Shown in pieces: positions 51,610 to 54,037 of a stretch of 64,000 nt of DNA. The stretch's first letter is position 1. Each line of letters starts with the position of its first letter. The notes under the pieces were generated by a model, which was not told the DNA's origin, made no database searches, and saw only the letters and a program-made list of their open reading frames with translations. The translations under genes were made by a program, and so were the position numbers. Source of the stretch: Escherichia coli O127:H6 str. E2348/69 (lineage in GTDB: Bacteria > Pseudomonadota > Gammaproteobacteria > Enterobacterales > Enterobacteriaceae); assembly GCF_000026545.1 (NCBI RefSeq), contig NC_011601.1, one strand, 5' to 3'.

Positions 51610-51793
51610 ATTTCTCTGAGATGTTCGCAAGCGGGCCAGTCCCCTGAGCCGATATTTCATACCACAAGAATGTGGCGCTCCGCGGTTGGTGAGCATGCTC
51701 GGTCCGTCCGAGAAGCCTTAAAACTGCGACGACACATTCACCTTGAACCAAGGGTTCAAGGGTTACAGCCTGCGGCGGCATCTCGGAGATTCC
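51610..51793 (+). ncRNA. ssrS: 6S RNA
   Basis: Sequence ATTTCTCTGAGATGTTCGCAAGCGGGCCAGTCCCCTGAGCCGATATTTCATACC...GGAGATTCCC matches 6S RNA; located between zapA and fau. Confidence 0.9.
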
Positions 51794-51867
51794 CTTCTTA
51801 TCTGGCACCAGCCATGACGCAACTACCAGAACTCTCACTGACATTATCCCGACAAGAAATCCGCAAA

Positions 51868-52416
51868 ATGATTCGGCAACGTCGTCGTGCGTTAACGCCG
51901 GAACAACAGCAGGAAATGGGTCAACAAGCCGCTACCCGGATGATGACTTATCCCCCGGTGGTGATGGCACATACGGTCGCTGTATTCCTCTCTTTTGATG
52001 GCGAACTCGACACCCTGCCACTCATAGAACAACTCTGGCGCGCCGGTAAGCGCGTATATCTTCCAGTTTTGCATCCCGTCAGTGCCGGTAATTTGCTGTT
52101 CCTGAATTACCATCCGCAAAGCGAACTGGTGATGAACAGGTTGAAGATCCATGAGCCAAAACTGGATGTGCGTGACGTGCTACCCCTTTCCCGATTAGAC
52201 GTGTTGATCACACCGCTGGTCGCCTTTGATGAGTACGGTCAGCGCCTGGGAATGGGCGGTGGTTTTTATGATCGGACCTTACAAAACTGGCAGCACTATA
52301 AAATGCAACCGGTGGGTTATGCGCATGATTGTCAGTTAGTGGAAAAACTCCCCGTTGAAGAGTGGGATATCCCTCTTCCTGCGGTGGTTACACCGTCGAA
52401 AGTCTGGGAGTGGTGA
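51868..52416 (+). CDS. fau: 5-formyltetrahydrofolate cyclo-ligase
   Basis: 182 aa from MIRQRRRALTPEQQQEMG; ORF-track 5' extension overlaps ssrS and is not coding. Confidence 0.85.
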   Translation: MIRQRRRALTPEQQQEMGQQAATRMMTYPPVVMAHTVAVFLSFDGELDTLPLIEQLWRAGKRVYLPVLHPVSAGNLLFLNYHPQSELVMNRLKIHEPKLDVRDVLPLSRLDVLITPLVAFDEYGQRLGMGGGFYDRTLQNWQHYKMQPVGYAHDCQLVEKLPVEEWDIPLPAVVTPSKVWEW

Positions 52417-52469
52417 GGGCGACACACCTGCATCGCCCTGATTGACATCGTTGATTCTTTAACCTAATT

Positions 52470-52610
52470 TAGTGAGTAAGGGTAAGGGAGGATGACTCCT
52501 CCCCTGAGACTGACTGTTAATAAGCTGGGAAACTTATGAGTAACAGTACAATCAGTATGATGACAAGTCGCATCATAACCCTTCTCCTTCAAGCCCTCGC
52601 TTCGGTGAGG
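52470..52610 (+). ncRNA. sibC: SibC antitoxin sRNA, antisense to ibsC (boundaries approximate)
   Basis: Plus-strand region fully complementary to ibsC, ending in gccctcgcttcggtgagggc terminator hairpin. Confidence 0.5.
52517..52576 (-). CDS. ibsC: type I toxin IbsC (19-aa hydrophobic peptide)
   Basis: Minus strand ATGATGCGACTTGTCATCATACTGATTGTACTGTTACTCATAAGTTTCCCAGCTTATTAA = MMRLVIILIVLLLISFPAY. Confidence 0.7.
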   Translation of the reverse strand: MMRLVIILIVLLLISFPAY

Positions 52611-52744
52611 GCTTTACCGTTACAGCCCCATGCTGCCCTGCCATCGTAAATCCCCATTAAATAAACACAACGCATTGATCTGACTTTGATTTATTTTCTG
52701 GAGCAGGCTCGCAAAGTAGAATGCGCAATGCGGCAACGGTGTGG

Positions 52745-52775
52745 AGAAGGGATAAAAAAACGGGCAAGTCAGTGA
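52745..52775 (-). terminator. rho-independent terminator of serA
   Basis: cgggca...tgcccg hairpin followed by T6 on minus strand, about 30 bp downstream of serA stop. Confidence 0.5.
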
Positions 52776-52804
52776 CCTGCCCGTTGATTTTCAGAGAAGG
52801 GGAT

Positions 52805-54037
52805 TTAGTACAGCAGACGGGCGCGAATGGTACCCGGAATAGCTTTCATTGCCTGCAGCGCTTTTTCGGCAACGTCTTCGTCGGCTTCAATATCAATAAC
52901 TACATAACCCATCTGGGCGGAAGTTTGCAGATATTGCGCGGCGATGTTGACGCCCTGCTCGGCAAAAATTTTGTTGAGCGCAGTCAGCACACCCGGACGG
53001 TTTTCGTGGATGTGCATCAGACGACGACCACCGTGCAGTGGCAGCGAGACTTCCGGGAAGTTCACCGCAGAGAGCGTTGAGCCATTGTCAGAATACTTGA
53101 TCAATTTACCCGCAACTTCCAGGCCGATATTCTCCTGCGCTTCCTGAGTCGAACCGCCAATGTGTGGCGTCAGAAGGACATTGTCGAATTCACACAGCGG
53201 AGAGGTAAATGGATCGCTGTTGGTCGCCGGTTCCGTCGGGAATACGTCGATTGCCGCCCCCGCCAGATGTTTGCTCGCCAGCGCGTCGCACAGCGCTGGA
53301 ATATCCACCACAGTACCGCGCGAAGCATTAATCAGCAGCGAGCCGGGTTTCATTAGCGAAATCTCTTTCGTGCCCATCATATTTTTGGTGGACGGATTCT
53401 CTGGTACATGCAGACTCACCACATCGCTCATATTCAGCAGGTCAGAAAGATGCTGTACCTGAGTGGCGTTGCCCAGCGGCAGTTTGTTTTCAATATCATA
53501 AAAGTAAACATACATTCCCAGCGATTCAGCCAGAATGCCCAATTGCGTACCAATATGACCATAGCCGATGATACCCAGCTTTTTGCCGCGCGCTTCAAAA
53601 GAACCCGCCGCCAGTTTGTTCCACACGCCACGGTGCGCTTTAGCATTGGCTTCCGGCACGCCGCGCAATAGCAGCAGCAGTTCGCCAATCACCAGCTCCG
53701 CAACAGAGCGCGTATTTGAGAACGGTGCGTTAAATACCGGGATCCCGCGCTTTGCCGCCGCATCCAGATCAACCTGGTTTGTTCCGATACAGAAACAGCC
53801 AATAGCGACCAGTTTTTCTGCGGCGTTGATCACGTCTTCAGTCAGATGGGTACGGGATCGCAGGCCGATGAAGTGGGCATCGCGGATGGATTCTTTTAAT
53901 TGTTCATCATCCAGCGCGCCTTTGTGAAATTCGATGTTGGTGTAACCAGCTGCACGAAGGCTTTCCAGCGCCTTTTGGTGCACGCCTTCTACCAGCAGAA
54001 ACTTAATCTTGTCTTTCTCCAGCGATACCTTTGCCAT
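52805..54037 (-). CDS. serA: D-3-phosphoglycerate dehydrogenase
   Basis: 410-aa ORF MAKVSLEKDKIKFLLVEGVHQ; C-terminal ACT domain. Confidence 0.95.
   Translation of the reverse strand: MAKVSLEKDKIKFLLVEGVHQKALESLRAAGYTNIEFHKGALDDEQLKESIRDAHFIGLRSRTHLTEDVINAAEKLVAIGCFCIGTNQVDLDAAAKRGIPVFNAPFSNTRSVAELVIGELLLLLRGVPEANAKAHRGVWNKLAAGSFEARGKKLGIIGYGHIGTQLGILAESLGMYVYFYDIENKLPLGNATQVQHLSDLLNMSDVVSLHVPENPSTKNMMGTKEISLMKPGSLLINASRGTVVDIPALCDALASKHLAGAAIDVFPTEPATNSDPFTSPLCEFDNVLLTPHIGGSTQEAQENIGLEVAGKLIKYSDNGSTLSAVNFPEVSLPLHGGRRLMHIHENRPGVLTALNKIFAEQGVNIAAQYLQTSAQMGYVVIDIEADEDVAEKALQAMKAIPGTIRARLLY

Follow-up and report, generated by a model that had tools for sequence, protein, structure and literature searches.

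A locus in the fau-serA spacer of Escherichia coli E2348/69 assigned to the type I toxin-antitoxin pair ibsC/sibC

A short locus located between fau and serA, in the 64,000-nt stretch of DNA analyzed here (referred to as the window), is almost certainly ibsC/sibC, a type I toxin-antitoxin pair of the Escherichia coli chromosome, in the form of the E2348/69 allele. The ibsC/sibC module is already known, and the genome from which the window comes already has an annotation for the toxin CDS. The initial annotation had proposed such a module at this place and had suggested a search with Sib RNA models as a check. This search, run with covariance models, returned a match to SIB_RNA (Rfam RF00113) at positions 52442-52592 of the plus strand, with a score of 136.5 bits for a gathering threshold of 56 and an E-value of 5e-28. 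The match was untruncated, i.e., it covered positions 1-147 of the 147 positions of the model, which provides the Sib-family hit that had been called for. Across the whole 64-kb window, SIB_RNA and the 6S RNA were the only Rfam matches.

On the minus strand, the ibsC CDS occupies positions 52517-52576 and is composed of 19 codons and a TAA stop codon. As initially described, translation from 52576 to 52517 leads to a hydrophobic peptide of 19 residues, MMRLVIILIVLLLISFPAY, followed by the stop. For the Pfam and NCBIfam scans, the in-frame upstream Val was added to the peptide in order to reach the minimum of 20 residues. Under these conditions, IbsC matched the Pfam family PF13956 (Ibs_toxin) over positions 1-19 of the 19 positions of the profile, with a score of 47.3 bits for a cut-off of 27 and an E-value of 1.8e-12, and no match was returned by the NCBIfam scan of the padded peptide. 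Among the 304 ORFs of 15-30 residues starting with ATG in the window, IbsC is the most hydrophobic, with a GRAVY value of 2.40 and a runner-up at 1.75. Alignment with IbsA-E and with the O157 copies showed that the peptide follows the family pattern, in which 18-19 residues start with MM(K/R), end with SF-x-(A/T)-Y and form an unbroken aliphatic core in between. The ORF was also rightly said to be missing from the ORF track, because the mechanical ORF list has a minimum of 20 residues.

A lone 19-codon ORF is weak as evidence, and several further short ORFs of the mechanical list overlap this region, so that one could imagine a chance ORF and a chance hairpin lying in an ordinary intergenic spacer. 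However, two independent curated models, of which one describes the RNA and the other the peptide, match in full length and far above their thresholds, and both the hydrophobicity of the peptide and the folding energy of the RNA (see below) are outliers. Besides, the unit is kept in 5,421 of the 5,426 genomes considered and is annotated in reference genomes. The coincidence of a chance ORF with a chance hairpin is thus refuted by the Rfam match, the Pfam match and the genome-wide conservation, and was discarded.

The assignment to ibsC/sibC is then documented by the genome context. Comparison of the window with the genome of E. coli E2348/69 (NZ_CP059840.2) revealed 0 mismatches over 3,451 nt, and a 451-nt query over the locus was 100% identical to this strain; the same query matched 5,425 of the 5,426 complete E. 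coli genomes. In E2348/69, RefSeq labels the product “type I toxin-antitoxin system toxin IbsC” (WP_071525914.1) and gives the gene order zapA-ssrS-fau-ibsC-serA-rpiA, which corresponds, in this fully identical genome, to the position between fau and serA proposed at first. In K-12 MG1655, sibC (b4446, 141 nt) and ibsC (b4665) are found in the same spacer between fau (ygfA) and serA, and the two loci are colinear. Hence, the identity of the module is borne out by the Sib covariance model and the Pfam Ibs_toxin profile, both above threshold, as well as by synteny, the RefSeq label and the colinearity with K-12. Orthology was examined on two points, namely the location in the fau-serA spacer and the nearest relative, which is K-12 sibC, with 136 of 141 RNA bases identical compared with a mean column identity of about 80% across Sib units. 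The K-12 and window loci share spacer and lengths, and their -35 hexamer, TRD2, terminator, Shine-Dalgarno sequence and ibsC promoter region are identical; the peptides are identical at 18 of 19 residues and differ at residue 17, which is Ser in K-12 and Pro in the window.

The E2348/69 RefSeq record (PGAP) lists the ibsC CDS and has no sibC ncRNA feature, which is present in the curated K-12 record. Upstream of the locus, the 6S RNA gene (ssrS) was found at 51610-51793 on the plus strand (Rfam RF00013, 139.8 bits, full length), where it directly precedes fau, as it does in K-12. The longest mechanical fau ORF (51670-52416, 248 residues) extends back into the 6S RNA gene, and the fau start retained by RefSeq lies further downstream, which leads to a gene of 603 nt in E2348/69 and of 549 nt in K-12.

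The antitoxin RNA, SibC, is assigned to positions 52478-52618 of the plus strand (141 nt), its ends being mapped from K-12 b4446 (Rfam RF00113). This mapping involves no indel and 5 base differences, and the K-12 sibC annotation stops at the base equivalent to 52618. The sibC transcription start site reported in K-12, where SibC was detected by northern blot, is an adenosine (PMC12956327), which agrees with the A found at position +1 of the mapped RNA. A putative promoter spans positions 52442-52470, with a -35 hexamer TTGACA (52442-52447), a 17-nt spacer, a -10 hexamer TAATTT (52465-52470) and a distance of 7 nt to the A of position +1 (52478). The -35 hexamer is the same in K-12 and is invariant in the 8 Sib units aligned. 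The Rfam model starts at this promoter hexamer and not at the transcript start. At the other end, the P7 intrinsic terminator (52593-52618) is composed of a GC-rich hairpin of 20 nt, gccctcgcttcggtgagggc, present as a single occurrence at 52593-52612, and of a TTTACC tail. The plus-strand sRNA-like unit with a strong terminator hairpin that had been described from the sequence is therefore recovered, both by the full-length RF00113 match and by this hairpin. The span given to the locus at that time, 52465-52612, was right as regards the place and needs correction as regards the ends: 52465 falls on the probable -10 hexamer, and the mapped transcript runs from 52478 to 52618, i.e., six bases past 52612.

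A scan of the region 52300-52900 for consensus promoters and terminators listed no sigma-70 promoter and, as terminator, the one of serA alone. The sibC promoter was missed because its -10 hexamer matches the consensus at 3 of 6 positions in spite of a perfect -35, and P7 was missed because its T tract is short. This negative result is a product of the scan rules and not an absence of promoter or of P7. Both elements depart from consensus, yet they show little or no difference from the elements defined experimentally in K-12.

Folding of the 141-nt SibC gave an energy of -55.3 kcal/mol, compared with -35.5 ± 4.0 kcal/mol for shuffled sequences (z = -4.9), and 0 of 200 shuffles were as good. 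The predicted minimum free energy structure contains a closing P1 stem, the P2, P5 and P6 hairpins, a single-stranded J1/7 segment and the P7 terminator, which is the layout published by Han et al. (2010; PMC2943612).

The ibsC CDS (52517-52576) lies wholly inside SibC (52478-52618), on the opposite strand. Its mRNA would be about 159 nt long and cover positions 52478-52636 of the minus strand, with an approximate 3′ end. In K-12, the ibsC mRNA extends past the 3′ end of SibC by an 18-nt 5′ overhang, and the model mRNA used is 159 nt long (PMC2943612); the 5′ end was hence placed at 52636. From position 52529 to 52706 the window is the same as K-12 without any difference, so that the ibsC promoter region mapped experimentally is unaltered. 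From the sequence, a Shine-Dalgarno motif AGGAG is recognized at 52584-52588 on the minus strand, 7 nt upstream of the ATG and within the TRD2 target. A terminator-like hairpin (52759-52785, minus strand), whose 12 pairs precede a T run, is located just downstream of the serA stop; the order on the minus strand is consequently serA, terminator, putative ibsC promoter and ibsC.

Two recognition elements of SibC, whose coordinates were mapped from K-12 (PMC2943612), were placed on the plus strand of the window. TRD1 (SibC +46 to +68) corresponds to 52523-52545, in the P5 loop region, and TRD2 (SibC +99 to +115) to 52576-52592, in J1/7. TRD2 is antisense to the ribosome-binding region of ibsC, is identical to that of K-12 and is single-stranded in the predicted fold; its target is the translation initiation region according to Han et al. 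(PMC2943612). The published pairs between ibsC G50, G51 and G53 and SibC C110, C109 and C107 (PMC2943612) agree with the coordinates of the window. Both TRD1 and TRD2 are exposed in the predicted fold, their complementarity to the ibsC mRNA being automatic for a cis-antisense pair. TRD1 includes a variable triplet, UGG at +49 to +51 (52526-52528), located in the predicted P5 loop and antisense to codon 17 of ibsC; in the predicted fold of the ibsC mRNA, codon 17 lies in a hairpin loop facing this P5 loop. Such a predicted placement of the triplet and of codon 17 fits a first contact between the two loops.

From these elements, a mechanism can be proposed for the window locus. The minus strand would produce an mRNA of about 160 nt encoding IbsC, a hydrophobic peptide of 19 residues expected in the inner membrane, and the plus strand would produce the 141-nt SibC, fully complementary to this mRNA. 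Contact would be initiated at two sites, TRD1 in the P5 loop pairing with the hairpin loop of the ORF around codon 17, and TRD2 in the single-stranded J1/7 pairing with the ribosome-binding region. Pairing would then spread, leading to the repression and degradation of the ibsC mRNA, and normally no toxin would be made. This scheme is taken from K-12, in which SibC binds the ibsC mRNA by TRD1 or TRD2, after which pairing extends, with repression and degradation of the transcript (PMC2943612). In the same strain, IbsC, which bears Ser17, is a helical membrane peptide whose overexpression depolarizes the membrane and stops growth (reviewed in PMC8309996). Transcription, repression and toxicity at the window locus are thus inferred from the K-12 experiments, because the promoters, TRD2, the Shine-Dalgarno sequence and 18 of the 19 residues are identical. 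Regarding the molecular target of the toxin, the inhibition of the Fo sector of ATP synthase by Salmonella IbsA (2025 preprint, 10.1101/2025.05.26.656083) may bear on that of IbsC.

Other type I systems of E. coli whose toxins are small and hydrophobic, namely shoB/ohsC, ldr/rdl, hok/sok and tisB/istR, follow the same principle, in which an antisense RNA silences the mRNA of a peptide acting on the membrane (PMC8309996). These systems are unrelated in sequence, and several of their antitoxins are trans-encoded or partly overlapping, whereas Sib covers the whole ibs ORF.

Within SibC, the 5 bases differing from K-12 are confined to two places. At +17/+18, in the P2 loop, the window has GA and K-12 has UG; at +49 to +51, in TRD1, UGG replaces the GCU of K-12, and codon 17 of ibsC accordingly changes from AGC (Ser) to CCA (Pro). 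Base 52461, in the promoter spacer, also differs from K-12. Since the triplet is the antisense of codon 17, the Ser17Pro replacement is a paired change of toxin and antitoxin arising in one event. More generally, the overlap of ibsC and sibC means that the toxin residue and the recognition loop of the antitoxin change together and that perfect complementarity is kept. The same triplet, G49CU51, was replaced by Han et al. (2010) so that SibC recognizes ibsD through TRD1 (PMC2943612).

The presence of Pro at position 17 had been noticed initially, together with the question of whether it is a strain variant and a proposal to compare the peptide with IbsA-E. In order to count alleles, we used probes of 41 nt centered on the triplet, such that every 28-nt megablast seed spans it; the resulting counts are lower bounds and tally genomes, shared ancestry included, and not independent events. 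On this basis, the UGG/Pro17 allele is carried by at least 2,790 of the 5,426 complete E. coli genomes (51%), the GCU/Ser allele of K-12 by at least 2,165 and a UCC/Gly allele by at least 1,843. The comparison with IbsA-E showed that residue 17 is the most variable position of the family (IbsA, Q; IbsB and IbsE, P; IbsD, A; K-12 IbsC, S; O157 copy proximal to serA, G). Pro17 is therefore a common natural allele and not a lesion specific to the strain, and IbsB and IbsE have the same residue at this position. K-12 IbsB/SibB and IbsE/SibE belong to the same family and have the same architecture as the window pair. The K-12 paralogues, located between yegL and mdtA and between yqiK and hldE, have TRD1 and TRD2 sequences of their own, and the average identity of the units across the family is about 80%.

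These data also bear on the idea that the window carries a decayed copy, in which Pro17 would inactivate the toxin and leave a harmless relic accompanied by a Sib RNA without target. Proline can disrupt helices. Moreover, residues 6-19, i.e., the central and C-terminal part of IbsC, are needed for toxicity according to a review of mutagenesis data (PMC8309996), and the loss of the entire module in O157:H7 TR01 has had no obvious effect on this strain. Given the role of these residues, Pro17 may affect toxicity. However, the ORF, the Shine-Dalgarno sequence, the start and the stop are all intact, Pro occupies natively the most variable residue (Q, P, A, S or G) in IbsB and IbsE, and K-12 annotates the Pro-bearing IbsE as “toxic peptide IbsE”. 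An allele carried by 51% of complete genomes, encoding a peptide that scores 47.3 bits against the family model, also speaks against decay, and we consider a relic very improbable compared with an intact ibsC/sibC pair. In the literature, reached through a review as regards toxicity, no report was found that tested the toxicity of Pro17 or repression by a UGG-type SibC. The primary description of Sib/Ibs is that of Fozo et al. in 2008, and a paper entitled “Decoding toxicity” is reportedly the primary mutagenesis study of IbsC.

The number of Ibs/Sib units per fau-serA spacer ranges from 0 to 2 among strains, the window and K-12 both having a single one. In O157:H7 TR01 there is none, the equivalent of window positions 52449-52629 being deleted, and in O157:H7 Z1768 and STEC306 the unit is present as a tandem pair, with an identity of about 90% between the two copies. 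The spacers of other E. coli strains that display this copy-number polymorphism correspond to L003 838-1044, L004 910-1362 and L007 910-1361. With the 451-nt query, 7,298 places were detected in 5,425 genomes, with at most 2 per genome, so that about 1,870 genomes seem to have two copies. One of the 7,298 matches, of the K-12-type allele, is on a record classed as a plasmid.

We considered that the single copy of the window could be a recombinant remaining after deletion between two tandem copies. The fau-proximal copy of the tandem arrays (WP_001387035.1 in STEC306 and WP_100635201.1 in O157:H7 Z1768) shares with the window the UGG triplet of TRD1, the P2-loop bases and the promoter-spacer base, which may reflect recombination, and its peptides differ from the window IbsC by V5A or F16L. 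Over the whole unit, however, the window has 11 mismatches in 385 nt with the serA-proximal copy and 22 in 298 nt with the fau-proximal copy, a comparison that favors simple orthology with the serA-proximal copy.

A second locus was found in E2348/69, in the spacer between hldE and yqiK (L009 13624-13773, Rfam 147.1 bits). It consists of a single Sib/Ibs unit, whereas K-12 has sibD and sibE at this place. The unit looks chimeric, combining a SibD-type TRD1 and the IbsD peptide with a SibE-type TRD2, a combination that a deletion between two tandem copies could produce. The window SibC and this hldE-yqiK copy share an identical run of 14 nt ending at +50, with one mismatch in the triplet, compared with a run of 12 nt and three mismatches between K-12 SibC and SibD. 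One may speculate from these alignments that discrimination is weaker in E2348/69 and that its two loci might cross-repress each other more strongly than those of K-12.

The three alleles of the triplet differ from one another by multiple bases and are each found in a third to a half of the genomes, the remaining unit being nearly invariant. This distribution suggests diversifying selection or gene conversion acting on the kissing-loop triplet. That SibC +49 to +51 and IbsC codon 17 would form a specificity switch at the population level is a tentative proposal, which we regard as rather unlikely. If it were true, selection or conversion on the triplet would insulate co-resident Sib/Ibs copies from each other. 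The polymorphism in allele and copy number is a modest extension of the picture drawn by Han et al. for the K-12 paralogues and is probably unsurprising. For the quality control of annotations, the locus illustrates that raw sequence can suffice to recognize a toxin gene of 19 codons and the RNA antisense to it, both of which escape ORF tracks. Finally, the polymorphism of the triplet, together with that of copy number, would constitute a natural allele series for the study of cross-talk avoidance among cis-antisense paralogues.
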